NCBI GenBank assembly: GCA_040954595.2
Contig: CM082586.2
Location: forward strand, 7,781,337 to 7,845,336
Length of the DNA stretch: 64,000 nt
From: Balanoglossus misakiensis
Lineage: Eukaryota > Animalia > Hemichordata
Reading direction: 5' to 3'
Shown: positions 5,601 through 62,700 of the stretch, piece by piece
Layout of the letters: each line of letters begins with the position of its first letter
How positions within the stretch are numbered: the first letter of the stretch is position 1
Made by a program: the position numbers and the translations under genes
Notes under the pieces: model-generated
The model's input: the letters and a program-made list of their open reading frames with translations, nothing else
Databases searched by the model: none
Told to the model about the DNA's origin: nothing

Positions 5601-6022
5601 ATGAAGAAAAAGAAGTTAATTAAGCCCACCGCGGAAAGGACCAGGGGTGGTGTCAAGAAATTAATCACCGATTCAGTACACATTGGTCAAAACGTATTAA
5701 ATCTTGGCTAGGCAGGAACAGGCAAAACCCATTTATTTAAGAAAATCTTAAAGCTGCACAGTTGATGGCAAATACCATTTTGGGTATATTTGTATAATCC
5801 TTTAACATGAAAATAATTGCCCTACCCATGGACTCGGGTCAAATTTACTCCTATAACGATATAAGCTTCATAGAAAAAGTCTGATGGTAAACAACATGTT
5901 TACATGAACCGCCGATACTACACGGAAACTGTGACGTCACAATCACGAGACCAGACGCGATGTAGCGTGAATTGGAGACGTGAGGAAGTGGCTTCATTCA
6001 CGCACATGTGCATGCTGTCAAC

Positions 6023-17386: not shown

Positions 17387-17680
17387 TTGGCCAGCAACGG
17401 GGAGTGTCAGATATGGTGTGGTTCCTTGAAAACAGGGGGAAAATATGGTGTCATAAATGTAAAACTGTTGAGCACTTCTTCGTGGAAATGTATTGCGGTC
17501 CATCGTTTATCTTACATGGTGGACCACAATACCACAGTGGTTGTCAAAACTCTGGATGTTTCACATTTATGCCATAATTCCCTCTGTATCAAGCCAGAAC
17601 ACCTTTCACTGGAACTACACCATATCAATAACAACAGACAGTACTGTAAGGCAAAAACTCAGTGTGTAGGCTTGACCTTT
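17387..17680 (+). pseudogene. His-Me finger (His-Cys box / I-PpoI-like) endonuclease remnant
   Basis: ECQIWCGS....YGVI....VHRLSYMV....DVSHLCHNSLCIKPEHLSLELHHINNNRQYC matches the CxxWxG / HR / SHLCHNxxCxxPxHL / ExxxxNxxR pattern. No clean start codon in frame. Confidence 0.8.
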
Positions 17681-32800: not shown

Positions 32801-32988
32801 CGAGAAAGCCCGTGTACAGGAACCTGATCAGAATGTTTCGTTCTGCAATCTTGTGGTGTCAGGAAAGGGGAATGGCGAGTTGTAAAATTGTGGAACACGT
32901 GGGCAATCTTGTGTCGTCTGCGGTTCCATCCGGTCGTCAGTTACTGCAGAGTATGGTGGATGAGGTTGTACAAGGGTTGGGGGAATAA
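23819..32988 (+). CDS. Multi-exon divergent ZSWIM4/5/6/8-like protein (BC-box + SWIM zinc finger + helical region)
   Basis: Phase-consistent exons 23819-23840, 24549-24655, 25147-25288, 25835-26037, 26229-26355, 26750-..., last 31891-32988. Motifs TSLVNLCAETVA (BC-box), IFYLAFP, GFVLSCTV, VSASFECRRI..TCTSC...CCHALAAILYR (SWIM), LSRDQMQTLLQW and DPT. Middle exons only partly traced. Confidence 0.8.
24806..25017. mobile_element. MITE with tactgtaaaa...tacagta ends and internal ttcgcg/cgcgaaaa repeats
   Basis: Terminal inverted TACTGTA; a related fragment lies at ~46414-46507. Confidence 0.55.
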
Positions 32989-34848
32989 CGTAATATTATT
33001 TACAGTCGTTCGGCTAAAAACAAAGTCTCAAGCATATTAAAGAATTCAAAGTTCCATGAATACGACCGCAACCAACCGAAATATGCAAATCAGTTGAAAA
33101 TGCCGAACAGATTTGTTAAATTATTGCCAATGTGGTTTTTTTTTTAATTGTTTTTATAAATATTTTTTTGTACGATTTCTCTCTTTGGGGAAAACTTCGC
33201 TGAAAAAGTTTGTCCTTATGCTTCGGTATTTTACGAGGATACAGTATTTGTGAATAAAGTGTAGGTTTGCAGTTATCGAGTTGTAAAGTGTATTCAACTT
33301 AATTCTGTCTGTTTGTTAGAAAGATTTGTAGCAGAAAAAAATTGAAGCGGAGAAGTGGAGTGATTTCAGGAAGACGCCAGTATGATATTGAAAAGCAGAT
33401 TTCTGAAATAAAATCAAAGTTGTCTGCTGTGAAGACCCATCCTCTGTTGTCAGGAACTATTGTCAGGAAACAGTGGGATTGAACCTGATGGAGACCAAAT
33501 TATTTTGAGACAAAATGAGGAAAGAATCAGCAAGATAAAGAAGGACACTGAATCACTGATGAACATTATTACAAAGAGTGAAATTGTTAACTTTACAAAG
33601 AATGGGAAACTTATCACTGGAAGGGATACTGCCAGCTCATTTCATACACAGGCAAGTGCAACACTTCTCCACCTGGAGAAAAGAGGTTCTGAGTATGTAA
33701 ATCCATGTGCAGTTTTCTAAAACATCAAACGGGAGCCGTCGTAGGTTACGTCAGCTGCAGAGATTGTAGTTTCGCGTATCCTATCAGCGACAGTAAATGG
33801 GAAAAAGTCTGTAGCTTTTTGAACGCGGTGTACAACAGTATTTCTGAGGTTCACGATTCGCCCCAGGCCGAGGAAATCACCCTGGACTGTTTCGCCAAAT
33901 GTCTTTGCAGAATGGTCAGGTACTGCCCTGCGAGAAAGCCCGTGTACAGGAACCTGATCAGAATGTTTCGTTCTGCAATCTTGTGGTGTCAGGAAAGGGG
34001 AATGGCGAGTTGTAAAATTGTGGAACACGTGGGCAATCTTGTGTCGTCTGCGGTTCCATCCGGTCGTCAGTTACTGCAGAGTATGGTGGATGAGGTTGTA
34101 CAAGGGTTGGGGGAATAACGTAATATTATTTACAGTCGTTCGGCTAAAAACAAAGTCTCAATCATATTAAAGAATTCAAAGTTCCATGAATACGACCGCA
34201 ACCAACCGAAATATGCAAATCAGTTGAAAATGCCGAACAGATTTGTTAAATTATTGCCAATGTGGTTTTTTTTTAATTGTTTTTATAAATATTTTTTGTA
34301 CGATTTCTCTCTTTGGGGAAAACTTCGCTGAAAAAGTTTGTCCTTATGCTTCGGTATTTTACGAGGATACAGTATTTGTGAATAAAGTGTAGGTTTGCAG
34401 TTATCGAGTTGTAAAGTGTATTCAACTTAATTCTGTCTGTTTGTTAGAAAGATTTGTAGCAGAAAAAAATTGAAGCGGAGAAGTGGAGTGATTTCAGGAA
34501 GACGCCAGTATGATATTGAAAAGCAGATTTCTGAAATAAAATCAAAGTTGTCTGCTGTGAAGACCCATCCTCTGTTGTCAGGAACTATTGTCAGGAAACA
34601 GTGGGATTGAACCTGATGGAGACCAAATTATTTTGAGACAAAATGAGGAAAGAATCAGCAAGATAAAGTAGGACACTGAATCACTGAGGAACATTATTAC
34701 AAGGAGTGAAAACGTTAACTTTACAAAGAATGGGAAACTTATCACTGGAAGGGAAGCTGCCAACTTATTTCATACACAGGCAAGTACAACACTTCTCCAC
34801 CTGGAAAAAAGAGGTTCCGAGTATAAGTCCAGTTCTCTAAAACATCAA
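32599..34848 (+). repeat. 1130-bp tandem duplication of the ZSWIM-like 3' coding end, 3'UTR and flank
   Basis: acgggagccgtcgtagg at 32599 and 33729; ORF 33705-34118 repeats the last ~129 aa of 31822-32988. Confidence 0.95.
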
Positions 34849-35079
34849 AGTTTAAAGAGGAAACAGAAACAGAAACGTTTTCCAGTGGATGATATCATGC
34901 TTTGTTTAGGACGTTTCATAGAAAATTTCCCAAAAGTATCAGGTCATTGGGCTTTGATGTCATATCATAGTGTATTTCGTTAGTACAGCTCAGTCTGCTG
35001 TAAATTGTTAAATCAACAATATTTCCTGTAGATGCACGAGCTTGATGACATGTCCAATGTTTACATTTATTATTATTAG

Positions 35080-37799: not shown

Positions 37800-40700
37800 A
37801 TGGCGTATCGAATGGAAGGATATAATTATAAGCTACGGCAGTTTGCCGAACTTATCAAGATTTCTGTGGTTTTGGCAGTAGTGTTTGTGGAACAAGGCGG
37901 TAAGTGTTTTTTTTAAAGTTTCATCACACCATAAGTTGGCATAGTCCACCTTGCTGCAGCTAAATCTTTGACAGATTGTGTTTGATTAGGGTGAACCTGA
38001 TTAACTGGCGGGATGCCTCCAATCATGCGTCAGTGCTACGGATATGGAGAACTCCGTTTCGGGTACGCTTATTTTCTGGTCAACAAAGTATCCAACGTTA
38101 GTATTAAAGGCACGTAAGCTGCAACTGGATAAAAAATTAAAGTTTTAAATAATCTCATATATGCTTTTAATTATGTCTATTAAATGCTATTTCATGATAA
38201 TATATCAAGCTCAACACTTGTTTATGACAAAATGGCCAAAAATTAAAGAAAAACGAAAATTCCTGCAATTTTTAAAAAAGTGCAATATTGCAATGAAAAA
38301 TGAAAATCTGATGTCTCAGTGGTGTACATTTACTTCCATGAGCTCAAGTGGATGAGATCATGTTTTGTTTATGAAGTTTCACAACCGGAAATGAGACATT
38401 TTCATTGTTTCTTGCATTTTCCCACAGTGGCGGCCATAATCGCTTGCGGCAAAGCTTTATTATTTATCTGGTTAAAACTTGCATATGCACTCATATTTAG
38501 GGTTTATAGTGCTTGTGTATTGTTCACTGCCTTCATCTGCATGGACTAATGGTAGTGCTGTTTGAAACAAAAATTATGAAAATTATCCCAAAAGTTACAG
38601 CTTACGTGCCTTTAAACATATTAGTGTTTAAGGACCGAACTGTAGCAAATGCTATCAGTTGAGGAATCGTTCCTCAGCGGAATATTCGTTTACCATTTGC
38701 TTTTAGTCTTACTATAAAGTAAGGCAATCTTTCAAATATTAAATTTCTATTGCTATTTGCAATTAATTTCGACTGCTAATCTAATTCTCACAATTTGTTT
38801 CAAATAAACATCATTCTAAGTATTCTCAATTGTGAAATAATAAGGTGTCGTGTATAAGAATGAAGTCTGAAAGTTCTTTGACGAATTTTCATACTGACAA
38901 TGGGACCGTCTTTCAGGTAATTGTCAGGTGGTCATTACTGATGTCTACCAGCGGTCGGGCAGAAAGATGGGACAGTTCTGTAAAGACTTTGGTCTACGCG
39001 TGGTCAAGGATGACAGCGAGACAAAACACCAGAATATAATTAAGGCACTTTATGAACAAGGCTTGGAAGACGCAAGACTGCTTATTGATGCGGTGTTCTC
39101 AAGCGACAGAAATGTTTTACGAACCAGCGACGGACAGGTGCTGACGTACAAGCCCTTCGTGGAACATTTCCCGAAGTACGGAGACTGTATAGCAATGAAG
39201 TAAGTTTAATCAATTGCAATCAATCGTGTAAATCAATTAAATGTGTCAGTAGTTACCCGTCCTCACCCCGACAAAGTCTACAAGCGGTGACCTCGCTCAA
39301 CTTCACCGCGCATCCTGTCCGATATAAGTGCACTGTACACTGTATATGTTTTCTGCAAAGGTTTTCTCTATATGTTGTCCAGAGCAAAATTGATGCGCAC
39401 TGTTTACAATTTTGAATTTTGTAGTCTACTTTACCGCCAAGGCAAGTGGAGGGACAGAGATTGTGATGTTTACGGATTCGATCCAATATGTGAAAATTCA
39501 AGTAAGTTGAGGTGTACTTGTATAAACTTGATGACAGATGTGAATAAATATCACCTGTATTCAGGCCAGAAAAGTCTCTGAAGAAATATAGATTACTGTC
39601 GGAAGCTTAGCTTTCACTGTAATGCACTTAAATGACAAAATACTGATTACCCTTCCGTGTTACGCGAGTGTCGACTTATATAATATAAAATTACTGAAAT
39701 TAATTTTGTTAATACTTGCATGCAACGGGGAATTTAAATGAGTTATAACACAGCTGTTTTACCATTTAATTGTAACTGGCGTTTTTTATTATATTCTCAG
39801 TGGAAAATGTCAGACATTTGTGTAGGAGAATTTATTTTCTGCGAAATCCAAAATCATCATTACATGGAAAATATCAACTTGTATTTCAGCAACATCCGAG
39901 CTTATATCCTTTAGATCGGCAGACCAAGTGGGTGCACGTCAGCAGTGTAACAGTGTCGGCTTATATTTAGTGTCTGTCATGAATAAATGGAAACATCAAA
40001 AGCTGCTTGCTTGTCCCAAGTGTCTTGGGATTTCGCCTCATGTCATTACAACGTGGATCGATGCACACATCGCGGCTGACAATGTAACGAAGACAAGCAG
40101 TGGTTTTGTGTTGGAGTACACGCCCTTTGGCAGAGGCGAGCGGATAGACCCCGGAATGTGCATTTGGACACGGTGAGTGCAAATCAGTTGTGTTTGTCAT
40201 GAACTTGTAAATTATGCAATACTCTCTTTAGCTTTATTTCCATAGGGATGGACGCAAATGCATACACAAAGTATTCTGATATACACAGCGTATACTTTAA
40301 GTAAACGAACTCTGTACAGAGTTCGATCATGGGTACAAATCATGTATACTCAAACTTCATATTTTACAAAATATTCATTATGGCCCGTGTATAAGCAAAT
40401 GACGTGTGTGCAAATGAGCATACTTTTTGCATTAACAATTTAATGTACAAATTCACACTTTTTTCTCAAGATTGTTCGGTATGAAAAGTTGTATACAAAA
40501 GAGAGACAATCAACATAGCACAATTTTAATGGTTCGGTAACTTGTATTTGATTTGCTATTTATTACTGACACTTCATAATCCAAGTTCGTTTACTTTGAC
40601 AGATGTTATGATTATGAAGTAGACTGCCGATGGCTTACTACACCTTGTGATGGGGAAGCGAAATTTTGGTCTTATTGTGGTAAGGGAAAATTACTAGTGA

Positions 40701-43700
40701 AACCATATAGTACCGGTACTTCTTTTCATACTGCAATGTTAAATATTTGCTAAGGACGGCGGAACTGTCACAATCCTTTTAAACTGTTGTAACTAAAACA
40801 TTCAGTTTGCATCACCAAAGACTCTTGTTAGTATATGCGTGGGTAAATTTCCTGTCAGTTGCGGTGTCCATGATAACATTTGAAATCAAGTTTCTTGAGA
40901 TTCTCTCAGGTGGCATTTACGCTAGATATTAATTTAGCAATCTACAAAAAACTAAACATTAAATGCAAATAAGTATTGAGGCAGGTCCAGTATGGAACCT
41001 TTTTTGAACTATTGCAATCCAACATAATAGAATCCCTTTCATCCCATTTCGTTTGATTACTGAGTTACACCGTCTGTACTAGATATTGCGAGCGATTTGA
41101 TGCATCAAACGCGTAAAAGTTTGTCAAGCATCGCGTATGAGGTAGATTGTATTCATCGTGTCATGGTATCTGAAATGTGATCTCTTTCAGTGAAATTTTC
41201 AAGATATAAATTTTTCACTATGAAACGAAGCATTTATCAATAGAAATTCGATCTCTGTATAGTGCCATCGGAATGTAACATCATTGTACTATGGTTATGA
41301 AACCTAACACTTTAAGTTTTAAATGCTTATTCGTGTTCGGCGGGATTTCTATAGAAAAGCATTCCCGGGCTGTGTACGACACACCGCCAACGCATTGCGC
41401 GGTTGTAGTATTTCAGATGGATTTAATAAATTATACACATACTCAATTGAAGAGCATACTTGACACCATGGGTTTTCTGATGAAATAATGACCATATTAG
41501 CCTAAGTTTAATTAAAAGCAATAACGATTTTATTACCTTCACACAGATTTAAGTACACCCTTTTCTCATTTTCACTTTAGATAATGACGACTTTCCTCAT
41601 CTGTCACCACGTTTGGCCGTGATAAAAGCCAGTGGAAAGCATACAACGACTCTCGTAAGGGAACACACATGTTGAAATTACACAACTGTTGTACATAGCA
41701 CTTTCAAACCACAAAACTATCGTCGGCCATTACCTTATGATTGGAAAGAAGGAGGATAATTATGTAAAATGCAACACCGAGACTGGCCCTCATCGTGTTA
41801 AAAAGTGAATGAGTGGAAAATGGAGTAGATGTTATGATCTCAATTTTAAATGCTATGTAAATATTGAATGACGACAAACTATGAGAAGATGATGTCAATT
41901 CGTTGTACTTAGCAACACAGCGGCCGGTTCCATGAAAGGCGTGTGGTGCAAATGTATGCAAAGGTCAATTGTCCTCGTATCAACTTAGAAACAAGAACAT
42001 TCAAACATGTCGGAACTGAAAAGTAAAACGTCGATGAATTTGCTTGATAATTATAATAATAATTTCTGAAAGATGTGAAAAGTTTACATAATCACTGTGA
42101 TATTTTTCTCTCGACAGAGTCTTGCAGTGATCGACGATCTGGTCAGTTTCACCTCGGGACTTGTCAACAAAAACACACTGTTTGAAGATAGCATTCTGCT
42201 TTCGCAAGGTTTGCCGATTAAATTTCTTTTTGTTTTCTGGAAATTCTGCAATTTCAAACTGATGGTTAACGTTCCCTTCAAACCTTTTCAGAGATACTGA
42301 GTATTATTCAAGATGTCATTGACACAATACAGTCCCTGATAGACGTTGATCCGAGTCAAAAGTTGACTCTAAACCAATCGAACGACTTGACGAAGAAGGT
42401 AACGGAAATAGTCGACCAACTGTCAATGTTTGTTCTTCGCATGGCCGAGAGTGACAATGTAACGACAGTGCTAAACACATCTTCACTCGTTTGGAACTTG
42501 GAAAAGAAATCTGCCAAGGAATTATTTGACCTCGTCGTGATGGTAGGAGATGGAAGTGGATTCGAGCTTCCGCCAATAGATAACGTGTTTCCTAACGTGT
42601 CGTCGGATGCTGTTTGGAGCAGAATGGTTAGTATTCATTACATCGCCGTCTTTTGTCACAAGGCAGTGGTTTACCACAATAGGGGAATGCTATAATTAAT
42701 TGGCTTCTTCCGTTTTCTTTCAATACACAATTGCCATTGATTGTGAATTTTAAGGATTAGAACACCCCTGAGTATTGCATGCTAACACAAGAGGGTAATT
42801 TTGTTTGTTACTTCTTTCCTCAGACGTCACTGCCCATTTACATCTGTTTTGAGTAAAAACATTAAAATCTTTATTTTCCCTCAGATATTCCGTTTTGCTG
42901 TTAACCCCCATAAACTGAACACGAAGAGATACAGCTTTACTACAGATATATTGACGCTGATATTCAAAGATGAAAACGGTGTCGAAACGACAGGTAGGAC
43001 GGACCAGAACATAGAAATGATTACTGGATAGTCATTCATATCTGCTTTTGTTTTTTTCCTAAGCGGTTACAAATTCGAAGCAAGCGTTACAGATTTGAGA
43101 TATCGAGGAAAAATTCTTACAGCGTTCGATTATGAAATCGCCTAATAACAATTCCAGAGCAAGGCAAGGTCAAAGTCAGTTTACCAAAAATTAATAAAAC
43201 TTTTGCTGGTTGGATTAGATAATATGTACAATAATTCCAAGACCAATACATGTATATTGATTAAGACTTGTTCAGCACACAGATGCACAATCATGGTAAC
43301 TGTCTTGTCGTATTCAAATATAATTAACTCTACTAGATGTTATAAACGGGCGTGGATTTTACTTCATAATGACAACGGGTAAATGTTGTCATTTCAGTGA
43401 ACGAAACCACAAAGGATATTGGTATATGGCTTGGAAATTACCAAACCCCATTCAACGAAAGTATTGTAAGAGGAAAGCACATTGAAGCCGAAGGAGTGAC
43501 TCATTATGAGTTGGAAGTAACGGTAGGACTGAGGGCTCATTAAACATCACAACTATTGTCTGTGTATACTGGTGTTTGCAATTTCACGTTTTTATGTTTT
43601 AGGTAATTAGGCTGTCAGGAAAAATATAATTATTTTATGATTGATTGATTGGTTGGTTGGTTGATTGATTGGTTGGTTGATCGATTGATTGATTGATTAT

Positions 43701-44896
43701 TGTATCAACATATTATAAACATTGACTTACAGGCACTGATGATGAACAACGCTCTCCAGATCACGTTGAAAGCATCAGAACCTATCTCTGAGACCATTAT
43801 AGCAAATGTGTCATCTGAAAGACCTGGCGATCCTGTCGAACATGGAAGTTTCCAGTTGATCATTGAACTGGTATTCGACGGCCGTTTTGCATCCATATTT
43901 TTGCCGGAAAATAAGATAACACGAACAGGGTTTTACTACGTGACCTTTGACCTTAATGGTAAGTGGCAGAAAAGGACATGTAAATGTTACGGTCTGTTTC
44001 ACTGTCAAGTTCCACTTGGTCATTGTATACGGAAAGATTTTGTTTCAAGAATTATTTATTGTCTATTGCAGAGATATGGATCTCGGTGGGCCTAAGGTTG
44101 GGGGTTGCTTGTATAAATGACAATTTTTTATAGTTATCTAACACCCACGCGGTAGTTATCATGTATACGTTAAACCTCAGCCACCCCCCCCCCCCCGCTT
44201 GTGAACCACGTGTCTGGCTAATTCCAGCTGCTTGGTGTAACCATGTATATGTTCATTTTCATTATTACAGCTTGTGGTGTTGACATCAGCGTGACAACCA
44301 CGCAGCATAAGTGCAGTACTTTCACCGACAGTGGTTGGGAAAACGTTGGATGCAAGGTATGGCATCGCTTGGTATAAATATGCCTGATCGGTATGCCCTG
44401 CTTTGTTTTGAGACCTGGTACTTGGACGTGACTAAATGCGTTAATCGCTTAAGGGGCGTAGAGAGGCCGAAACTTTGTTGTACTGTTGTAATTAAGTGGT
44501 CAGTTGTTTATTAATACAGTGAAATGGTCAAATGGGCCCACTTGGGGGTTTCGGAACAAAAATTTGCACCGCCACAAACAATTCAACGTGAGTTCATGAC
44601 TATAGGTACTGGTTCAAATACAGGTACAGAGGATTTGTACCAACGCCCTCCTCGGGTATGATAAACCCCACGACCCTGAAAAAATATTCACGAACTGTTT
44701 ATGTTTCAGTAAATAATTAAGTAACCGTTTTCTGTGTTCCATTTGTTAGGTATCACCGAAGTCCAACTACAACTCGACTCTGTGTCTCTGCAATCACATG
44801 TCAACGTTTGCTGCAGTTGTTGAAGTCCTTGATCTGGTGGAAATTGAGACGCACTCGTTACATCCTACACTTAACCAAAATGTCAGAAGCGGGTGA
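37800..44896 (+). CDS. 13-exon, ~670-aa protein: signal peptide + 2 C-type lectin-like domains + PKD1/REJ-type GAIN/GPS domain, no transmembrane segment
   Basis: Phase-consistent GT-AG exons 37800-37899, 38917-39199, 39425-39501, 39890-40172, 40603-40679, 41581-41654, 42118-42208, 42292-42626, 42885-42993, 43398-43522, 43733-43958, 44271-44356 and 44750-44896. CTLD motifs (WID, GDCIAM..KWRDRDC..ICE). GPS: KCSTFTDSGWENVGCKV...CLCNHMSTFAA. Confidence 0.82.
38108..38611. mobile_element. Non-autonomous Kolobok-like MITE
   Basis: TTAA at 38104-38107 and 38612-38615; TIR aggcacgtaagctgcaact / agttacagcttacgtgcct. Confidence 0.85.
43638..43697. repeat. (GATT/GGTT)n microsatellite
   Basis: Direct reading. 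Confidence 0.9.
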
Positions 44897-45349: not shown

Positions 45350-47230
45350 AATTAAAGCTGCAAGCAGCGTTGGCGGGGCGGTTCCCACGGTGACCAGCAA
45401 ATGCCAAGGCTGTATCTGCTGTGGATACCAAGATATGGGAAAGTAGGTCAAAGGTCACCCCAAAGTTGGGCAAAAAAATCGGACCCCATACTATTCTAGG
45501 TCCAACAAAAAACAGACCGCTAGCTCTATTGGTTTGCCTAGAATTAGGTATGCACATAATTAATGAGGTCTTGTGTAAGACTCCATATGTGCTCCATCGG
45601 CCCCCAAAAAGCCAGGACTCTAACTGCACTGCACGTCTACTCATTGGCCCCTATCACCCTACCAAGTTTCAGCCCCCTAGGTGCAGCGGTTTTCCATATC
45701 TACCTGGCCAAATTTTGGGAAGAAGAAGAAGAAGAAGAATAAAGAAGAATTAAAGCTGCAAGCAGCCCAAGCGCTGATCCGGTATTATATATGCACAGTA
45801 TGAATGAGAAGAAACAGAATGCTCTATCGGGTGTTTTATCTCATGGCATAACACAGACGTTTTTTTGCTACTGAAATACAGTAAAGTAGGTCAAAGGTCA
45901 CCTGAGGTCACCCAGCATTTCGGCAGAATTTTTTGACCCATACTGGTCCATGTCCAACAAAAACCAAAACTCTAGCTCTATTGGTTTGCCTGTAATTAGG
46001 TATGTGCATATTTAATGAGGTCAGCAGGTGTCACAGGTGACCCAAAAATGTGGCTTTACATTTTTGTCCCATCCTGCCAAATGCCAAGGCTGTATCTGCT
46101 CTGGATGCTGAGATATGTGAAAGTAGGTCAAAGGTCACCAGAGGTCACCCAACATTTGGGCAAAAAATTTTGATCCCATACTGGTCCATGTCCAACAAAA
46201 ACCAAACCTCATATTGGTTCGCCTGTAATTAGCTATGCACATAAGTGCAGTACTTTCACCGACAGTGGTTGGGAAAACGTAATTAGTGAGGTCAGCAGAG
46301 GTCAAAGGGGTCATGAAAAGTAGCAAATTATTTTGATCACACACTAATCCACATGCATCAAAAACCAAACGTCTAGCCCTATAGGTTAGCCAGAAATTAG
46401 TTGTGAAAGAACAATGTGTGAAAACGCGAAAATTAATACTCGCGTAACAGTGGCCTCTCTCGATATCGCGAAAATTTTGACTTGCGAAAAAAAAGTGTTT
46501 TACAGTAGGTCAAAGGTCATGCGAAAAAATCGCCAAAAATTTGTAACATATTTTAGTCACATGACGATAGATATCCATGAAAAGAATTTGTATGCTATCA
46601 ATTTTTAGACTAGGATAAGGAATTTAAATTTTTCACTGCTTTTTACAAAATCCAATTTGGCCACCATAATCTTCGACCAATCACAATGCTCTTTGCAAAC
46701 TTGATAGACATCAGTGTAGTGACCATACTCCCCCAATCTTTCGACTCAGTTATCTCCTGTTCTGGAGAAGAAGATTTTTGGAGTTTCACTAGGGTTTTTC
46801 GAAAATCCAATATGGCCGCCAAAATCTTCAACCAATCACAATGATCTTCGCAAACTTGATAGACATCAGATAGGTGACCACATACCCCAAACCCCGTGTC
46901 TCGGTTATCACCGGTTCTGGAGAAGAAGATTTTTGAAATTTAAGCCGGATTTCAGAAAAAAAATTGTAGCAAAAAAACTGCAACATTGACAGCAAAATAT
47001 TCGATTACAAAAATGATGGGTAGAACGTAGACTACCTGCACACCAAATTTGAAGTCGATCTGACTTGTAGTTTCTGAGATCTGCATTTTTTCAGAAAATC
47101 CAATATGGCCACCAGGTCACGGGACTAATTAAAAATTCACAGGTTCAATGCACATCTACTAATTGACCTTGACCACTGTAGCAAGTTTGAGAAGTGTACC
47201 TCTAGCAGTGTCTGAGATCTAGAGTTGAGA
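45350..47230 (-). mobile_element. Cluster of Helentron-associated (HINE/DINE-1-like) non-autonomous elements
   Basis: Ends aattaaagctgcaagcagc at 45350 and 45749; (GAA)n at ~45718; internal gtaggtcaaaggtca and aatccaatatggccgcc repeats shared with 52929-54088. Confidence 0.65.
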
Positions 47231-48123
47231 CTGGGTAGACCTTCTCGAAGTCGTGAAACCTTGGCGATTAAATAGTTCTGAAACTGCCTGGGTAGGACAT
47301 TAGTGTCAGTAGCCTTTGGTGTTTATTACAACATTGTCTTTCTAAACTTGTTCAGACAATTTAATACCAAAGAAATGTCTTGGGAACTTGGCTCATTGAA
47401 TTAATGTGGGCTTATTTTTGCCTGGGTAGGACATTAGTGTTAGTAGCCCTTGCATAAGATGGCTCAGCTGTGATCTTAAAACATCACTCCCTTATCATCA
47501 GCCTCTTGAATGCGGTTACGATGGTAGTATAACTACACTCTCTCAGACAATTACCAATGAAATATCTTGCGAAAAATGGCGTATTTTTACAAATTCAAAT
47601 AGATGGGTATTATCTCCAATATTTTCTACAGATTCAGTTTGTTATTGTAAAACCCAAAATAGCTACAAATGGTTGGAATTGGGTGAAGTAATGTAAGAGA
47701 TATATAAATAAAGGCAATACAGAAAGACCAGGAAAAGAGTACAAACAAGAATTTTCTCAGCGATGGAAACTCGCACGGTCAGTACTGTTTTAGAAGATAC
47801 ACACTGCCAACAAAGACTCCTTAGCCTGGAATGCTCGTCGTTCACCTTTGTACAATGCATTATTAAACATAGACTGAACAAACAATATTGATCATGCATT
47901 ATCTGTTTATTACTTGACTAGTCCCAACATAAAAAGGGTGATTACACAAATGCTAAAGAAAGACTAAATACATATATGGTAGCCAAGAACTCTAAATCAA
48001 CTATGAAACTGACATGACTATTTTGAATGATACAGTAATTACAGGACTAGATAGAATACATGAGTAAAATGACTCAATTTCATTCATGCCATTGTGCTTC
48101 CTGCAGTCACCGGTGTCCTTTAT

Positions 48124-48395
48124 TCAAACTCGGTCCCATATGTAGCAATAGTAGCCTGAAAGAAATCAAGGTTTACATTCAAAATTTGTTACGGCAAAAA
48201 AAATAGAATGCTGTAATGCTTCCGAGTGACCAAAAATTAAAATTGACATAACATTGATGTGACAAATGATTTGTATTCATCACACACATTTTTTACTAAA
48301 GTCAAAAGCTAGTAGACCACATTCCAAACTCCACGATACCTTGCAAGATATCACATATCAAGGCAGGTCAATAAACTCTCCTCTTTCCTGTGAAT

Positions 48396-48437
<42 letters not shown>

Positions 48438-51400
48438 TTTATTGCGTTCCAAGGCCACCGGCCCATATGCAAGGGGGTTACAGAAATTTAACATAGATAA
48501 GACAGCAAAATAAAGTACAGCTATACATGACAATTAAACAGTTTAAATCCTGTCTCTTGAAAAAAGCGAGAGATATATCTTTCTCTGCTTAAAAGCTTTG
48601 CCTATGAAAATACAAAGGTCTTTGTGTTTTTGTTAAGTTAACCTTTGTGAATAGAACAAAGCAGGTAAAATGCAGAATATAAGAGAAAAAGTAATAAAAC
48701 CAATATTCTTCCACATACCGGGGTACATACATACATACATACATACATACATACATACATACATACATACATACATACATACATACATACATACATACAA
48801 ACAAACAAACAAACATACATTAAACTGTGCAGAGTAATACTTACATTTATTCCACAAGCCTGGAAAGAAAGAGCATAATAGAACATTTGTAAGTAACATA
48901 CCAAGAAACGCATATTTCGCATGCCAATGTTACCTCAATATGTGATAAACTGACCCTATATGTAATAATATTTATATCTCAGTTAACCACAGTAATGTCA
49001 TACATACATACATACATACATACATACATACATACATACATACATACATACATACATACATACATACATACATACCATACATACCATACATACATACATA
49101 CCGTACATACCGTACATACATACCGTACATACCGTACATACATACATACATACATACATACATACATACATACATACATACTACATACATACATACATAC
49201 ATACATACATACATACATACGGTACATATATACGGTACATAAATACATAACTGTGCAGAGTTATACTTACCAACATACCACCCACGTTTGGATGAATCAA
49301 CTATCTGCTTTCCTGTGAACAGAACAAAATAGACAATAAGTGGAATAATACACACATACATCCTCCAATAAATGATATAGTTATACAAATAAACTGCCAT
49401 TGATCAAAGCTATGTTACTAAATGTACTCGTCATCTGTAGACACGTCAAAGGGTTTTGATCACCTTACCTTGAGTATTTCCTGCTGTGCGTTCATGTCCA
49501 TTATTGGCTGCTTCGGCACCGTCTATTTTAATAAAAATACCCGAATCAGAAACATATACAATACAGAAAATCACAACATTAACGTCATCTCCCAAGTAAG
49601 GCAAAAAGGTCTATAAATGTTATCGTGCCATTTCCTAACACCAGCAGTGTTACCTTTATGCTGCTAGGAGATAAGTTCGGCATACGATACCAGTAAACAT
49701 TTACATGTGTTAGAAATTTATGTATATTTTGCTTAATCTGGCCATCTGATTATAATATATGTGGTCAGATAAGAGATCATCACTTCTGAAATGCATGTTT
49801 ATCAGCATGTCTTTCATTTATCAAGGATGCCAGGCACAAATTAAATTATAAAATTAAAAGTTTTTGCATTTACGGTGGATTTCAGCTACAGTCGCCGCTT
49901 TCTTTAAAAAATTGTATTCAAAACCTTTAATTTGGTTAGACTTTTATTGAAAATATTGGTCAAAGACTGTATGTGTCATTTATATTTTGCGTGTGTATTA
50001 CACATCTTAACAGCGAGATGACATGGAAATGGTCGTATGCGTAGCGACTTTGTATGTTGCTTCTAACCAGTAACAGAGATCCCTTCGTTAAAAATCATAG
50101 AACAATAAAATAAAACATGGATAAGGAAACATCTTAAAATAATCTGTAGACGTTAATAAATGCCAATAAACTGATCATATGATGACTGCCCTCAGTTGCG
50201 GCATTGACTATCAGGATAAAAATTGTATTTATATACAGTCAAACCTGTGTATAGTGGCCAGTCAAGGGACCTTCATAAACTGGTCTTTATAGACAGGTGG
50301 TCTTTATAGACAGGTCAATTAATGCACATGTAAGTTGCACAGGGACTGTAACATAGTGGCCACTATATAGAGGTGGTCACTATATAGAGGTGGTCACTAA
50401 CACAGGTTTGACTGTAACTAAATCTCAATTTCCATAATTTTGTCTTTGATACAAATGAAGTATACATCACTATAAAATAATTTGCTCAAAGAATATCTCA
50501 CATTACTTATTCTTTACTTACAAAGTTTGGATGAATCAACTCTCCTCTTTCCTGTGAATAGAACAAAGCACGTAATATGTGGAATAATAAGAGACAGAGT
50601 AATAACCACTATTGCCATGCCCAACCCCCGTCTGGTCACTTTTTGTCGTCTGCTTCGTGCTTAATGCTCGATCCCGGACAGCTCGTGTTTACAGTCATCG
50701 TCGCCATGTTGGTTCGTGATTGTAACTTCTTTTTCTGATGCTGTTTCGTTCAGAAAATGCCACTGATATACCACAAAATCAATGGTTGATATAATATAAT
50801 AGCAATAACCCTTGCCTCAGTCGGGTATACACTCGATTTGGGTACAATTCGCTCCATATATTGTACCCAAATCTCGTGTATACCCGCCTGTGGCAGGGGT
50901 TATTGCTTAAGTATCCTCAACTTATAGATACTATTGTGATATATGTGTGTCACCAAACTCACTTAAATAAAATAAAAATCTTAAAATACAGGAATTCTTA
51001 CTATTAATGGGAATCCATGGTTCTGGAAAGAAGGACAGAATACCGGTTGACTATTTGTTACTACAAGTTTTTACGGCAAAAAAACACTGTTTATTGATTG
51101 ATCAGACTTGCTGAAGTTATTAGCAAGCTCAACAGATAACGCGGCAACATACCTCCACGTACCCGTATATGTCTGTTGCAAAATGCTGGGTCCATATACC
51201 GGTCTACATATATACCGGTACATATATACATACATGACTTTCAAAAATTAACTTTGTACGCAGTAATATATAAAACCATAGTTTTATATATTACTAAGTT
51301 TCTTTGTTTGACGCCATCATTTACAATACTGTTACCCACAGAATACTATTATGTGACACACATCAGATGGATTAAATTTTCATCATACGAATTTGTTACA

Positions 51401-54400
51401 CTGTATGCAATATATTTTAAAAACAAGAAATTTACAATATTCTACAATATGGAAAATTAAACATGCGGTGGCCATCTTGGGCAAAACCTTAAAAATTACA
51501 GTTTTCCGGTTGTGGGATTTTGGTATACTTTTAATATGTTATTCAGAAAACCATTGAGAAACCTGTGTTGCAATTGCATATTATTAGAAACCAATGAGTA
51601 CATCCTTGATGAGGAAATTGTTTCAGAAATAGTTAAAGGAAACGATAAATCAGAATTACTCTCAATGAGCTAACGGAGGCAGCATACCTTTCACACTGAA
51701 ATAAGCACTAAAACAGTAACATACCATACAAACAAACACGTAGTGCTACCTAGTAATTTTGTTGGAAAGGGACATTTAAAGGTCTATTTGGCTTTGATGA
51801 ATGACACAACATGCTTGCATACTATGTTGATTTTGAGAATCAAAGCGAGAGTCTCCTATGACCAGGAACAGTTATGCAAATTTTGACATAAAAAAAGACT
51901 GCAGTCGATTGTCCAACACATTTGAAGCATGTTCCACTTTCCTATTTTCAAACTCCGTCTTTCTATTATTGATAAGGTGAATGTCATGGAATCTGTGCAC
52001 TATTGTGAATTCCAATTAAAGTAATTGTGATTCTGTTTACTTGAAAGTTACTGTGTTCAGTGAATTGATGAAAATATTTGTGTTGATGCCTAAAATAAGG
52101 GCAATGTGGATCTCATCATCTGTTTTAAGGCAGTGAAAAGGAACAGTTGATTTGATATCTTGATATTGGATTTTCATAATAGGCGATGAGGAAAATATAC
52201 ATACATACACATATGCATACACACATACATACCCGGGTGTATACCGGTGCACACATACCGGTACATAAATACATACAGCAAAACCTGTCTAATCTGGAAA
52301 CCTGTCTATACAGAACACTTTCCCTGACCCTTTGACATAGAACCATGTTAAAAGAAGCTCTTTAAACTGGATGCCTCTGCAAACCAAACATTTTTTTCAG
52401 CCCCTATAGTATTTGGTTTAGACAGGTTTTACTGTACATATATAGACAGACAGACAGACACAGAGTCAATATACATACCTCCCCCCCATGGAGCCATTTC
52501 TCCCCATACTGAAGAGAAAGAGCAAATAAAACATTTAAACACTCATTTCTGCTTGTATGGATATGATTCATAATCTGTTTAAGTCGGTTGGTCTTTTGCG
52601 ATATTGCTTTTCCTGTGTACTTTGTAACAATTGTAGTTTTGGAGAAGATCAACGTGTATGTACTATTATTGATTTATCGGATTGTGGATATGTTACGTTA
52701 AGCCTTTTACATTGTGAAATGCAGTAGGGCAGCATGTAAAATGGCAGTGCGGTGGAGACAAAATCTCAGTCGGGCCATTAATTTTACTACTAATTTTACC
52801 CCATTATTATCACTTACCTCCACTTGTTCTTGCTACTTGTTCATTCTCATACCTTTTTAATTCAGAGGCATCTATTTTGGAGAAAAAAACAATAAAAAAC
52901 CTAAATTACAGATGGGAAAACAAATAAAAATTAAAGCTGCAAGCAGCATTGTCCGGGCCCAAGCTCTATTATCTGATCTGATGCTGATATAGTGTTAAGT
53001 AGGTCAAAGGTCAGCCGAGGTCACCCAACATTTGGGCAAAATATTTTGACCCCATACTGGTCCATGTATAAAAAAAACAAAACCTCTAGGTCTATTGGTT
53101 CATCTGTAATTAGGTATGTGCATTTTTAATGAGGTCAGCAGAGGTCAAAGGGGTCATGAAAAGTAGCAACATTTTTTGATCACATACAAATCCACATACA
53201 TCAAAAACCAAAATGATAGCCTTAAAGGTTAGCCTGGAATTAGATATGCAGAAAAATGATGCGTCAAAAGTAGGTCAAAGGTCATTGCCAAAATTACCAA
53301 AATATTTATAGCTTATTCTTGGCATATGATGATTCATATCCATAAAAAGAATTTCTGTGCTATCAATTTTTAGGCTAGAAAGGGAATTTTCACTTTTTAA
53401 TCGTTTTTCACAAAATCCAAAATGGCCGCCATAATGTTCGACCAATCACATTCTTCTTAGCAAACTTGATAGACATCTGTTTAATGACCACACACACCAA
53501 ATCTTGTGACTCGGTTATCGCCGGTTCTTGAGAAGAAGATTTTTGAAATTTTACTAGGGTTTTTCGAAAATCCAATATGGCCGCCAAAATCTTTGACCAA
53601 TCACAATGATCTTCGCAAACTTGATAGACATCAGTTAGGTGACCACATACACCAAACCCTGTGTCTCGTTTATCACCGGTTCTGGAGAAGAAGATTTTTG
53701 AAATTTAAGCCAGATTTCAGAAAAAAAATTGTAGCAAAAAACTGCAACTTTGTCAGCATAATTACCAATTACAAAAATGATGGGCAGAAGGTAGTCTACC
53801 AGCATGCCAAATTTGAAGTCGATCTGACTTGTAGTTTCTGAGATCTGAGATTTGCATTTTTTCAGAAAATCCAATATGGCCGCCAGGTCACGTGACTAAT
53901 TAAAAATTCAAGGGTTCAATGCACGACTACTCATTGACCTTGACCATTGTAGCAAGTTTCAGAAGTGTACCTGCAGCGGTGTCTGAGATCTCGTGGGTCA
54001 AAGAATTGACACAAGAATAAAGAAAGAAAGTAAAATTCCAACGAAACCAATACGGGCCCAAGCCTGGCTTGGCTTGGGCCCGTAAATATAACGCAAAATA
54101 TGCATTGCCTTCTGTATAAAAAATTATGCAACACAGTAGTCATGGCTACTGACCACGTAGGTTTACAGTGTATTGAGAAATTTTGTTAGTTCCTGACACC
54201 CCAGTGTGTGACCTTCATCGTGCAGAGAGTACAAGACATGTTGTTATCACAGTGTAATGACCGAGCTCATGGAAAGTATTTGTGCACCAGATGGTGTAGA
54301 TTGGAGCTTGGTACGAAAGATATAGAGTTATATAGAGATATGCGTCTTCTTAATTGGTGCCTGAAACACGATTGCAGCTTTAGGTGAACTCTGAAATTGA

Positions 54401-54566
54401 TTTGAAAGAAAGATAGTCAAAAGATGTGTCAGAAGTTCTGATGAATATCATATGTTGATAGCTTACCAGGATGTTCGCTGTAGGCTGTCTTCTCTTCATG
54501 GAGAGATGATGGCCGAACAAAACACACACAGGCGAGGGTAATCGTCAGCAATAATACCTTCATCAT
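48124..54566 (-). CDS. Micro-exon-encoded secreted peptide precursor (~125 aa)
   Basis: Exons (minus) 54566-54467, 52871-52818, 52508-52479, 51022-51002, 50551-50522, 49522-49469, 49312-49271, 48859-48845 and 48155-48124, all AG/GT bounded; internal exons are multiples of 3 in phase 1. Translation: MMKVLLLTITLACVCFVRPSSLHEEKTAYSEHPDASELKRYENEQVARTSGVWGEMAPWGGEPWIPINRKRRVDSSKLYGAEAANNGHERTAGNTQGKQIVDSSKRGWYVGLWNKCYYCYIWDRV*. Confidence 0.75.
48403..48645 (-). mobile_element. Short 3' fragment of the same LINE family as 8123-9050
   Basis: tttattgcgttccaaggcc..ccggcccatatgcaagggggttac matches 8142 onward. 14-bp TSD tgtgaatagaacaa (48389-48402, 48646-48659). (GATT)n tail. Confidence 0.9.
48724..48820. 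repeat. (TACA)n/(CAAA)n microsatellite
   Basis: Direct reading. Confidence 0.97.
48998..49240. repeat. Interrupted (TACA)n microsatellite
   Basis: Direct reading. Confidence 0.97.
50236..50414. mobile_element. Tc1/mariner-pogo-type MITE
   Basis: TA-cagtcaaacctgtgt...acacaggtttgactg-TA. Confidence 0.85.
50583..50911 (-). mobile_element. Non-autonomous Crypton-A-like element with long terminal hairpin
   Basis: ~107-nt imperfect palindrome agcaataaccc..gggtatacac..gatttgggtacaat / attgtacccaaatc..gtgtataccc..gggttattgct(taa) at 50801-50907. Family assignment is from recall of the terminal structure. Confidence 0.55.
52276..52434. mobile_element. Tc1/mariner-pogo-type MITE
   Basis: TA-cagcaaaacctgtctaa...ttagacaggttttactg-TA. 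Confidence 0.8.
52929..54088 (-). mobile_element. Complete HINE/DINE-1-like element in intron 1 of the peptide-precursor gene
   Basis: Minus strand: 5' tttacgggcccaagc..gcttgggcccgta (subTIR + IR), ttct microsatellite, core with internal repeats, 3' subTIR cttgggcccg, stem-loop gctgcttgcagc and T-rich end. Confidence 0.72.
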
Positions 54567-54619
54567 GTTGGTTGATTATCTCGGTGTAGGATTCTAGTGA
54601 ACATCAACAGGTGATCGCA

Positions 54620-54626
54620 ATTTATA
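54620..54626 (-). promoter_or_regulatory. TATA box (TATAAAT) of the peptide-precursor gene
   Basis: Lies ~55 nt upstream of the ATG (caacATG) with an Inr-like tcact between them. Confidence 0.6.
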
Positions 54627-57317: not shown

Positions 57318-58421
57318 TAAAGTGTGACCTATATACGTAGCTCGAGTCATTGGTAGGTTATTTTCGTTTTGAATTCTTCGGAACCAAACAGTGACCGAGG
57401 TTACTTATTTGGACTTTAGCTGGTAACCTACCTGTCGAGGCAAACATTTCGAGTGGACAGTAAATCTTTTGGTGCTGGCAAATTCTCTTCTCAAGCTTCT
57501 GTCAGATAACATTTTGATTAATCATGTTATGTGTCTTAAGCTTCTGTTTTCAAAAATTGACCTAAGAAGTACTACATGCACATTCGATGTTTATATGGTC
57601 TGATAGCATTGTTTGGGGCTGGTGGGTCTCTTATCCCTATCGGTTATCGGTTTTTCCTCCTTTTCATACTAATTTTTTGTCACCCTAGATCTAGAAAACC
57701 ACTGCACTTCTCAAAGTTGGTACTATAGTCTGTTCCAATGAGAAGCCACTCACCTGGCTTGTCAATTTTAATTTCAGGAAGAAAAACGAGGTTCATGGGT
57801 TACAACGCCCTGGTTAAGGTTAAGTACTACGAAATCACCAAAAAATAAATGTAATGTCAACTTGATGAAACATTCTATAATATTATACCTCTTGAAATAT
57901 GAAATAAAAAATAGGGGTCACCTCATCCGTTTCCATGGAAATGGAGCATGAAAAGTACTCCTTAAGGACCTGAAAAAATGTCCACTTGAAATAAAAATTC
58001 ATAATAAAAGTGTAAAAACACAACTTAAGAATAAAAAATCAATTAAGAGGATGGATATTTGAAAAAACTTGTCTTTTCAGACTTTTGATTGTCAATCATA
58101 GAACAAAATTTGTTGTAGACTTTTGTGTTTCCTTTTCATTTTGAATTCCACGAAGCCATGCAACTCCCATGGTTCACAGTACTAGCCTGTCATGTGAGCT
58201 TGTTTTCGATCCTAAACTACTCGGAAGCCATGTTCGTGCACACTTCATGCGCATGTGCAATGAAACCTATTTGTAACTTGTAACCTAGCTACCAAACTAC
58301 AAACTGGTGGAAGGTTGGCGATTGCCAACATTGCACATTGGCATATACTAAATCTGTTGTATATCAAAGGAACCGACATAATTTTCACCGAAACACAGTA
58401 CTGACAACAACAAGAACAATC

Positions 58422-59662
58422 ATGAGCAGCCAGAGAAGAATTTACGTAAGACATGCTGACGTCAGTGGTAATCTGATGCCATTGAGATGTAAGGAGGACG
58501 ACACCATTTGGGAACTGGCCGTTTTAGTGAAGCAGAATGCTGACATGTTTGATCTCAGAAGCGATGATATTAAGACCAACAACATTGGCATATGGCTAAT
58601 AGATGGCAGTGGTAGCAAACGGCTATTGGAGTTTAATGAGCCTGTTTCACTTATTAAAAGTAACTGCACGGTAGAATTCACCGAACATCGGCAATGTAGT
58701 AAGTATACATTACCCCAAATGACAAAACATTTAAAATTATAGCTGTACTGATTTGGGGAAATTAAAAGTTTTGTTCCCGAAATCCGATAATTATAACTGA
58801 AGAAACGGATTGTGAATACTGCTACATGTACCGTATAGTATGACTGGGGCTGTGCTATTTACCATGGACTTGTTGTAATGTTGTTTATTACGGGATTCGA
58901 ACACATCACGTAGCAAGTAATTCCGTTAAAAATACACCAGTTTCATAATACTGATTAGTGGACAACCTTAGATGCCATTGTATCACTGCACTCCATCTTA
59001 CGTTGTATAAACCTTGTTTAGGGGGGCGGAAGGGGGTTGTTTGGAGGTACATCAGGCGGATCGCCTTGTATTTGAATCACTGTGATTGTGTTTTTGATTG
59101 TAAGCGAGTACAGTTTCCATATACTATCCAACCCACACATGCATTAAAATGCATCTCTGGCACATTATTTGAAAATATTTATATTTAACATGGCATTGCA
59201 TAAAACATTTTCCCCTTCATATATCAGTTTAAGCTTATTCCCATGGCTCAGGGATACACACTCGCATTAAAGTGTTAATCTTTATGTTAATGTACTGATT
59301 TAATACTGTTCAGCCTACAGCATCCCAGTCAGATACATAAGGTCAGTCAATCCGCTTCCAATACCATACAGAGAGAAATCTGATGTCTCTGAAGTTGCGC
59401 GATACATACGAGAAAATATTACAGCCTTCCACTTGACACAAGAAGACACTAAACGAGCCAAGCAAAGTGGGGGTGAAGTGGTGTTAATGCAGATCATTGA
59501 TGGTGATGAAAAATCAATCAAGCCTGGTACGCAAGTACATAGTTTGGAGGGTTCCGATCTTGTCTTTAAGATCAAATCTTCCTCTCGTCAAGACAAAGGT
59601 GAGAGGTTCCAAAAGAGACTATACACATTTGTGCCTCATTTGTTAGCTGTCAATTGATGCGC

Positions 59663-59693
<31 letters not shown>

Positions 59694-59747
59694 TGTATGT
59701 ATGTATGTATGTATGTATGTATGTATGTATGTATGTATGTATGTATG

Positions 59748-59781
<34 letters not shown>

Positions 59782-62700
59782 TGTATGTATGTATGTATGT
59801 ATGTATTCATTTAGACAAATTGTTGATTGTCCGACAATACAATACAATACAGTTAAATACAAACAATACAATATTCTGTATCGCCTGTTTATTTCTGGTT
59901 TCCTTCAGAATATGTAACTCTCTGCCCTGTTAACGTTTTTGTTGCTTTGTGTCTCTCAGATTTGGAAATTTGGGTGAAACATATCACCGCAGTCTATCCG
60001 ATCCGCTTCCACTGTTCAGAGGATGACACGGTCTCTGATCTCGCAAAGAAGATTACAGAACGTATAAGAGATTTTAAACTATCTACAGAAGACACAAAGA
60101 TGGCTCAAAAGTGTGGAAACGAAATAATACTGGCGACTATCCCCGATAAACCTGGAGACAAAAGCAAAGTTTTGAATCCGGGTGATAAAATCGCTGGCAT
60201 GCAGGAAAGAAGGTTCGAATTTTCAGTGCAGACAAAAGAGATGAGAGTGACTACTGTAGGTAAGCCACATTATAAACTCAAATAATGTTCGGTGGTTTCT
60301 CTTTAATCGGCAAAATCAAATGAATTTCTTAGCTAATTCTGGTACCTTTTGATCACACTTCTTCCCATAGCAATGTTTATGTGACGAGCATCGGATTGTC
60401 GCCCATTGCTGACAATGTTTTCCCATCATTTTGTTGCGGCTTTAAAGTTTGATTATGTCAGAGGCACGTAACTACCGGTAATCGCATGAGCTGCAACTGG
60501 ATAAAAAAATTAAAGTTTTAAATAATCTCATATATGCCTTTAATCATGTCTATTAAATGATATTTCATGATAATATATCAAGCTCAAGACTTATTTATGG
60601 CCAAAAATTGAAGAAAAACGAAAATTCCTGCATTTTTAAAAAAAGTGCAATATTAGAATGAAAAAGGAAATTATAATGTCTCAGCGGTGTACATTTACTT
60701 CCATGAGCTCAAGTGGATGAGATCATGTTTTGTTTATAAAGTTTCATTACCGGAAATGCAACATTTTTGTTGTTTTTTGAATTTTCCCACGGTGGCGGCC
60801 ATAATCGCTTGCGGCAAAGCTTTATTATTTATCTGGTAAGAACTTGCATGTGCACTCATATTTAGGGTTTATAATGCTTGTGTTTAGTTCACTGCCTTCA
60901 TCTGCATAGACTAATGGTAGTACAGTTTGAAACAAAAATTATGATAATTATCCCAAAAGTTACAGCTTATGTGCCTTTATAAAGCCTGAGCCCCTGTGAC
61001 ACATTTTGGGAGTTTTCTTTTGATATGAATACTGCACAATTGTGACTTTGTAAGTAAAAATTTGTCATAAACTATTGGATCAGTAATTTTTAAATTCTTC
61101 AGTCTCTAAAACTTTGGTATATTAGTACTAAAAATTCTATACACTTCCGCGAATCCTATTTTTTTTTCAATTTCTTAGCGTTTGAAAATAATTTATGATA
61201 ATTAGTTCTTTATATTTTTAAAAGCTGTTTAAATGCTCTTTCAACTGAACAGTCGATTTGATTTATTACAAACAAATCCTTCACAATCATTATGCTTGTA
61301 AGCTATATTAAATTCCATGAAAGAGTTCTGTCGCTTATTAAGACTTTTCTCCTTTACTTTAAATGACGCAATCTGGTTATAGATATAACAGTTGTTAATT
61401 TTGTATTTACAGATGACATCAATGAAAAGTGTGATGGGCAGAATATAGCATTTGTTGGAGCACCTGGACACGGGAAATCTTCCACCATTAATACTACTAT
61501 CGGAGTACGTATCTGGATCGTGCAGTATGATAAATGATAATAAGGCATTACCAAAATATATCTGAAGGTGTTCTGTTTTTAAACTAACTAATAAGCTAGA
61601 ATTTTTAGTACTAATATACACAAAATATTATGCCACAATATGTGCAGTAGTTATTATATAGTTCTTTCAGTTTCATTTGTATTCTTGCTCTTGTATAGCT
61701 TGAAAAAAAATGAGCTAGTCGTATCAAAACATCGCTAATTTTTGCTACTCGGGATTGGAAGCAAGAGAGGCTTTGAACAACCCAAGTCTAATGAATCTGT
61801 TTATTTATAGGCACTGGCACAAATCCACGCTCCACTAGCTTCAACATGGAAGGGTGCAGCAACTGGAACTAGCGCTTTGACTTCGTACAAAATTGATGTG
61901 AGGGGAAAGTATTTCAAATTCATCGATGTTCCTGGCAAGGCAATAAGCCACAAAGGGAGTGATCAAATGGAGAAGATAATTAGTGATATCTTTGATGGCA
62001 CATATGCAGAAAACGAGTCCCTGGATTGGAAACTGAGTAATTACTTTAAAACAAAAACTGGTCCTATGCATGCTGCAGTCATCGTTCACAAGGGTGGTGC
62101 TGATTTTGACCGAATCGGCTCTACTACTATAAGAGTTGCTCAAAAAAAAGGTAATAGTTTAAATGGACATTGTATGACTTATCAAAATGTCTAAGTAACA
62201 TAAATTAAGACAGAATAGGTCAAATCATAATAGTATATTGCACTGTGAGTAAAATGGTCGTAAACCCAATGTAATATTTTGAAGAAATAATGTATTAATT
62301 ATTGTATTTCACGACATTTCTGTCTTTAGCTAGTATAAAGAACTTCATATTAATGCATTCGTGCCAGTACTGTTAAGATGTAAGGCGAAATAAAAAATGT
62401 TTCCTGTTCCAATTACATGGTTTTTAAAAATAGGATAGGTGCGCAGGGAAATTTTCTTTATATTGCAATTTTTAAAAAATCTTCGGCCGTCATAGTGTAG
62501 AAGAATGACGTCATAGTTCTGGCGCTATTCTTGCAATTTTCATAAATTTGATATGTTTGACATGGTTATTGTTACTTCTGGTTTACGAAGCTCTAAAAAG
62601 TTTAGGGTTGGTGGGCTAAAATTAGGGAAGGTCGGGTAATTGGAACAGAACATATTTTTAATTTGGCCTATAACTGGCAACCTGTTTTGATTTTAAAGTT

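Follow-up and report, generated by a model that had tools for sequence, protein, structure and literature searches.

A 64,000-nucleotide (nt) stretch of the acorn worm Balanoglossus misakiensis (GCA_040954595.2, contig CM082586.2, forward-strand positions 7,781,337 to 7,845,336; hereafter the window, whose own numbering is used throughout) harbors on its minus strand a gene of nine exons, seven of which are micro-exons. Our preferred reading, to which we give somewhat less than an even chance, is that this fused gene encodes a 125-residue secreted precursor, which prohormone convertases would cut at KR and RKRR sites into two Trp-rich peptides, likely fast-evolving receptor ligands. That the locus is a real gene is very probable, and the exact nine-exon chain is probably, if less certainly, correct. 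A sequence-only reading had drawn up this gene model, which stood, and missed a decayed second promoter with exon 1 and a third KRR-encoding exon. These two features, the paralogy among the exons and a long interspersed nuclear element (LINE) at the acceptor of the third KRR exon are new here.

A TATA box (TATAAA, 54626-54621) lies 28 nt 5' of an initiator-like TCACT, which places +1 at 54598. Exon 1 (E1, 54598-54467) consists of a short 5' untranslated region and 100 coding nt (54566-54467) starting at ATG 54566, with an in-frame stop four codons 5' of this ATG. It encodes a predicted signal peptide and an acidic pro-part and closes with the donor GTAAGC in phase 1. Seven internal exons bounded by AG and GT follow: E2 (52871-52818, 54 nt), E3 (52508-52479, 30 nt, donor GTATGT), E4 (51022-51002, 21 nt), E5 (50551-50522, 30 nt, donor GTAAGT), E6 (49522-49469, 54 nt), E7 (49312-49271, 42 nt) and E8 (48859-48845, 15 nt). 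The coding part of E9 (48155-48124) reads YYCYIWDRV and then a stop, and AATAAA starts at 48124 and at 47911. Introns measure 156-1595 nt. The coding total is 378 nt, giving 125 residues and the stop; 246 nt of it lie within the seven symmetric exons of 15-54 nt and 96 nt in exons of at most 36 nt. All junctions are in phase 1, which is the sole phase open in all seven micro-exons. Every coordinate of the earlier model, from TATA box and signal-type exon to the open frame of about 125 residues, checked out. The first intron falls at coding base 100; phase-1 first introns at base 50-100 are common to secreted proteins in general and typical of neuropeptide and conotoxin genes (PMC13542836).

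It is very improbable that there is no gene and that splice-like signals arose here by chance in AT-rich DNA. GTAAG donors in the gene span were compared with those in 1000 dinucleotide shuffles and in 28 real tiles of 6.3 kb taken elsewhere in the window; E3, with its donor GTATGT, falls outside this test. Chance as an explanation gains from the number of GTAAG sites, which is at background (6 observed against a shuffle mean of 5.6), from the choice of the tested region after the fact, and from one real tile that reached five of the six exons; these three points count against the gene. However, all six sites close an exon whose length is a multiple of three and which is open in one phase. Six such exons occurred in only 1 of 1000 shuffles, and in none of the 1000 did all of at least six GTAAG sites close exons of this kind. 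For five sites a strong acceptor lies no more than 60 nt away, which no shuffle matched (best 4 in 1000). No real tile contained six in-frame GTAAG exons (best 5) or three strong acceptors (best 2). Chance is further contradicted by the combination of TATA box, initiator and hydrophobic first exon, by exon lengths and splice sites that are conserved from one paralogous copy to the other (see below) and by the excess of Trp after exon 1 (6 of 92 residues, p ~0.003; local DNA in translation has 1.6%). This supports well the earlier claim of a secreted multi-peptide precursor made from symmetric phase-1 micro-exons. A weak point of the model is that the donors of E4 and E5 score near 0 once exon-side bases are included; the splice-site scores used are generic. 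Three further candidate exons that had been proposed, 52119-52041 (79 nt, weak donor GTAAAC), 51695-51688 (8 nt) and 51172-51153 (20 nt), are probably decoys. None is a multiple of three alone; the 79-nt candidate keeps the frame open when paired with the 8-nt or the 20-nt one, but the other pairings tried stop or shift. Local alignment showed no significant paralogy of the 8-nt and 20-nt candidates (47/300 shuffles) or between the 20-nt candidate and E9 (186/300).

The predicted precursor begins with a hydropathy peak (residues 1-21); this peak, the in-frame stop ahead of the first ATG and the phase-1 intron at base 100 fit an N-terminal signal peptide, with an uncertain signal-cleavage site. 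Three basic runs follow, KR at residues 39-40 (encoded by E2), RKRR at 69-72 and KR at 105-106. The first predicted peptide is a 28-mer with three Trp and a net charge of -3. The second is the C-terminal 19-mer (residues 107-125) with three Trp, four Tyr, two Cys and a net charge of +1; it is 37% aromatic. Two Tyr lie between its two Cys, which may form a disulfide, and W-N-K lies outside that ring. The basic sites and both Trp-rich products thus turned out as the sequence-only reading had written them. Both hallmarks of a prohormone-type precursor, a predicted N-terminal signal and dibasic or polybasic sites flanking short peptides, are present. Such a precursor would enter the regulated secretory pathway and then be cleaved by PC2/furin-type convertases. 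Saccoglossus possesses convertases of this type and the amidating enzyme (PMC10508912), and the annotation of the hemichordate neuropeptidome is incomplete (10.64898/2026.04.13.718258), both in keeping with receptor ligands from a prohormone-type precursor.

The origin of the gene is indicated by a decayed copy of the promoter and the start of exon 1 within intron 5 (49821-49642, minus strand), which shares about 67% identity with the first promoter and exon 1 over 175 nt and marks the start of a second gene copy. The alignment score is 132.5, while the best of 300 shuffles reached 71. Both ATGs are lost in this copy, the TATA box has become CATAAAT at 49722, and the rest of the exon is gone together with its donor. 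No additional promoter or exon 1 copy was found in the window. The pairs E2/E6, E4/E8 and E5/K3 are paralogous including their flanks (each 0/300 shuffles), with 28 of 54 nt identical without gaps between E2 and E6; K3 is the third cut-site exon, discussed below. E3 and E8 have related introns at their acceptors, and the intron upstream of E9 weakly resembles that of E4 (a score reached by 7/300 shuffles). E7 is composite: its 5' part copies the cut-site exon, with KQI in place of KRR and a newly gained KR further on, and both its 3' part (GWYV) and the next intron resemble E8. At 52612, what looked like a decayed cut-site exon did not reach significance (121/300 shuffles). By these comparisons the exons can be assigned to three paralogous types, all in phase 1: spacer (E2 with the first KR, and E6), cut-site (E5 with KRR, the 5' part of E7, and K3) and Trp-core (E3 with WGEMAPWGG, E4 with PWIPIN, E8 with LWNK). 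Together, the duplicated promoter and exon 1 and the paralogous exon types indicate that the locus is two tandem gene copies. The nine-exon gene was likely formed by fusing these adjacent copies, in that the second (B, E6-E9) is likely spliced onto the first (A, E1-E5) through the E5 donor. In the spacer exons E2 and E6, the proportion of nonsynonymous differences (pN 0.52) is not below that of synonymous ones (pS 0.39). Over 17 codons, this is a weak hint that selection was relaxed or diversifying.

K3 (48387-48340, minus strand) reads KRRVY and then a stop. It shares with E5 a 27-nt identical run across the acceptor and KRRV, and has a 1-nt gap relative to E5 and E7. K3 may be a pseudo-exon or an alternative, stop-carrying exon. 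At its acceptor lies the 5'-truncated 3' end of a LINE (48645-48403, minus strand), which comprises the last codons of the reverse-transcriptase frame and a TTGA tail, is 93% like 8142-8322 and is flanked by 14-bp target-site duplications (48659-48646 and 48402-48389).

These remnants also fit a different and rather unlikely arrangement of two separate units. Copy A (E1-E5) would be live and end in an unspliced E5, giving the first peptide only from a precursor of about 80 residues, and copy B (E6-E9) would be a recent pseudogene without signal exon. The decayed promoter and exon 1 would then be expected, and K3 and the LINE would be decay within copy B. Moreover, read-through of unspliced E5 meets a stop after 10 codons, then come two poly(A)-like hexamers (49948 and 49931), still ahead of the second promoter, and the acceptor of E6 scores poorly (-4.1), although its donor is strong. 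In contrast, E5 carries a full GTAAGT donor, E6, E7, E8 and E9 retain AG/GT and share one open frame whose phase is that required by E5, and the E8-E9 join gives an even number of Cys. The copies of the promoter differ by about one third, whereas in E6-E9 no splice dinucleotide is lost and the frame is intact. In a simulation of neutral decay (n=20,000) E6-E9 stayed intact in 0.2% of the runs at the duplication distance and in 3.6% at half of it, which makes old neutral decay (0.2% to 4%) unlikely. At a quarter of the distance and at 0.035 substitutions per site, 18% and 33% stayed intact, and these values, like the hexamers and the E6 acceptor, speak against the fused nine-exon gene.

On the reading of one fused precursor, the charges of the two peptides bear on their role. 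Cationic Trp-rich antimicrobial peptides carry a clear net positive charge, which neither the 28-mer (-3) nor the 19-mer (+1) has, and the two are poor candidates for a classical antimicrobial role of the cationic kind. Judged from these charges, aromatic peptides that are acidic or near neutral would suit receptor binding better than membrane lysis. Another possibility, to which we assign clearly less weight than to receptor ligands, is that the same gene and processing supply skin or mucus defence peptides (antimicrobial, antifouling or deterrent), possibly modified at Trp or Tyr, for instance by bromination. Acorn worms produce bromo-aromatics, and rapid divergence, duplication, transposon insertions and missing homologues are typical of defence effectors. 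The aromatic, two-Cys composition of the 19-mer and the highly secretory hemichordate epidermis (PMC13554239) point the same way, while the charges argue against it.

It appears improbable that the gene belongs, in diverged form, to a bilaterian neuropeptide family already known (Wamide/MIP, somatostatin/allatostatin C (ASTC), MCH or TRH type). As in MIPs and in Drosophila sex peptide, Trp pairs stand a few residues apart, and the 19-mer would, like sex peptide, be unamidated with a disulfide (PMC7270403). The acorn-worm peptides, however, lack a C-terminal amidated Trp and repeated two-Trp copies, and Wamides are unreported from deuterostomes in the available part of the same source. Like the MCH and somatostatin/ASTC precursors of ambulacrarians, the predicted precursor closes with a two-Cys peptide that follows a dibasic site, here residues 107-125 (PMC4772807, PMC8851493). 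The ring differs from somatostatin/ASTC, as it contains only two Tyr and neither FWK/IWK nor FXP (PMC8851493). It differs from MCH in its Tyr-Tyr loop, which is short where MCH has a long one, and in lacking Met/Ile after the first Cys and a basic residue penultimate to the second (PMC4772807). A Cys spacing of only two residues thus speaks against both. The possible GWYV amide is single and begins with Gly, whereas TRH precursors contain many tetrapeptide amides with N-terminal Gln (PMC6586643). With the acoel AWDF/LWDY peptides, Trp-Asp is the only common feature (PMC6188537). In favor of a known family, hemichordate somatostatin/ASTC ligands and deuterostome Wamides are reported missing in the available text (PMC8851493, PMC7270403).

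Several observations tell against receptor ligands cut from one precursor. The 28-mer and the 19-mer are unlike each other and do not repeat a common motif, E6 does not retain the first KR of its paralogue E2, and nine coding exons exceed the one to five of sea-cucumber neuropeptide genes (PMC6586643). Only the precursor layout would point to receptor ligands as the function. Furthermore, neither exon-1 queries nor a search of sequencing runs with 47700-48160 revealed a transcript, protein or homologue of the gene; no run of any kind, RNA included, matched the latter query. Exon 1 alone was long enough for homology queries in sequence, family and structure libraries, which did not extend to the mature peptides; a distant relative may therefore exist. 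For exon 1, there was no match in Pfam, no usable match in the Atlas, and a word-index search of longer proteins gave four candidates, none at E <=10. Among 1.84 billion representative sequences two matches were obtained, neither a real relative; both are long tandem-repeat open reading frames (ORFs) and were rejected as artefacts. In metagenome contigs, the cut-site exon pattern had 0 matches, and none of 594 pattern matches of the exon-1 protein was confirmed. Five single-exon motifs retrieved no relevant paper from paper texts (two were irrelevant by title), and exon motifs were absent from three supplementary files each of PMC10508912 and PMC6586643. At the level of titles, literature on micro-exon neuropeptide precursors and on hemichordate peptidomics or secreted peptides revealed no such gene; the peptide table of 10.64898/2026.04.13.718258 was outside this coverage. 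Nothing known matched the gene, as far as exon 1 and the exon motifs and patterns reach. Similarities to galanin, GnRH, SWYG, AWDF/LWDY and NG peptides extend over two to three residues and were dropped for this reason.

As all exons are in phase 1, each junction splits a codon, and this codon would determine the chemistry of the peptides. The split is 1+2, and the cut-site exons begin with GA. Joined to an upstream exon ending in G (E3-E5 or E7-K3), they are predicted to yield Gly-Lys-Arg-Arg with an amidation glycine, whereas an upstream exon ending in A (E4-E5) is predicted to place Arg before KRR and give a free acid. The junction base T creates a stop in E8-K3 and in E5-E7, while T from E8 creates the first Cys in the join with E9. 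Skipping of exons would thereby alter peptide length, amidation and ring closure, and loss of E5 or E7 removes one cut site. The 128 skip patterns that end in E9 include 16 that stop early, every one through the E5-E7 join, and yield 14 distinct short Trp products (1 predicted to be amidated). Patterns ending in K3 yield 13 (2 predicted to be amidated). Across all 256 patterns, what precedes the amide glycine in the products predicted to be amidated is always Gly-Gly or Val.

The sequence-only reading had taken this layout to allow combinatorial skipping. Its symmetric in-frame exons agree with that, but in view of the early stops, and because duplication of exons or of the whole gene needs symmetric exons and would account for them equally, skipping is possible only. 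The symmetry may simply reflect duplication, which counts against splicing as a switch. It is a speculative and rather unlikely extension that a splice-programmed peptide library exists in a deuterostome, in which shuffled or skipped cut-site and Trp-core exons switch peptides between amidated, extended, disulfide-closed and truncated forms. Orphan receptors of acorn worms might be served by such ligands, perhaps of the two-Trp MIP type that is considered lost in deuterostomes.

Two known systems come close without including the gene: in its way of working it resembles a prohormone precursor, and in its layout a micro-exon gene (MEG) of schistosomes. In vertebrate TAC1 (preprotachykinin A), the mature peptide likewise comes from several exons, and skipping decides which peptides and extensions (NPK, NP-gamma, NKA) are made (PMC9800884). 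The acorn-worm gene, however, encodes no FxGLM-amide or tachykinin likeness, nearly all its internal exons are micro-exons, and the junction codon itself would make the amide glycine, Cys or stop, with skipping only predicted. MEGs share the signal exon followed by tiny symmetric exons, escape from ORF finders, fast evolution and nearby transposons (PMC4350168, 10.1101/2023.06.21.545858, PMC4015677). They have 10-20 exons of 6-81 nt (10.1101/2023.06.21.545858) as opposed to seven internal exons here, and are described as flatworm-restricted (PMC4350168). The hemichordate locus is not part of a flatworm gene family (the neighboring gene's only match is from Ptychodera flava, at 51%), and no homology to MEGs was shown. 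Its product differs in carrying dibasic sites for several peptides; the words "dibasic" and "cleavage" do not occur in the available main text of the MEG preprint (10.1101/2023.06.21.545858).

Peptide signaling in hemichordates is thinly annotated, and genes of this kind are invisible to ORF-based annotation. The locus captures a multi-peptide precursor under construction: the gene was duplicated, the second signal exon was lost, a cut site moved (in E7, where KRR disappeared and KR was gained) and a LINE landed at an acceptor. Exon skipping, should it take place, would put amidation and disulfide bonding under the direct control of splicing, beyond the precedent of TAC1.

Several repeats and other genes surround the locus. 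Two copies of a repeat element, 87% identical, lie within intron 1 (53269-53991) and at 46504-47220, and a small inverted-end element occupies 50411-50235 in intron 5. At 1-9700, tandem copies of a 2.9-kb element (97.7%), whose match to tyrosine recombinases is weak (PF00589, E 0.0012, short of the cut-off), are broken by a LINE fragment at 8246-9061. The plus strand harbors an unbroken 582-residue piggyBac-type transposase frame (14581-16329; PF13843, E 3.5e-82) and an ORF resembling His-Me finger endonucleases (17360-17746; PF05551, E 1e-11). An orphan gene with long ORFs (27110-34849, plus strand) has its 3' end duplicated in tandem (1.1 kb, 97.7%); its 405-residue ORF at 31771 had no homologue in Pfam and protein searches. 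Plausible exons of a large gene extend over 37879-44095 (plus strand), of which 42270-44095 has no Pfam match and resembles the extracellular part of a polycystin-1-like protein or of an adhesion receptor. One frame of a 21-nt candidate at 37879 encodes LWNK, probably by chance. The multi-exon gene at 58284-62194 (plus strand) encodes repeated N-terminal domains and contains a GTPase exon (PF01926), whose one match among 192 candidates is an uncharacterised 536-residue protein of Ptychodera flava (51%); this gene appears IFI44-like.

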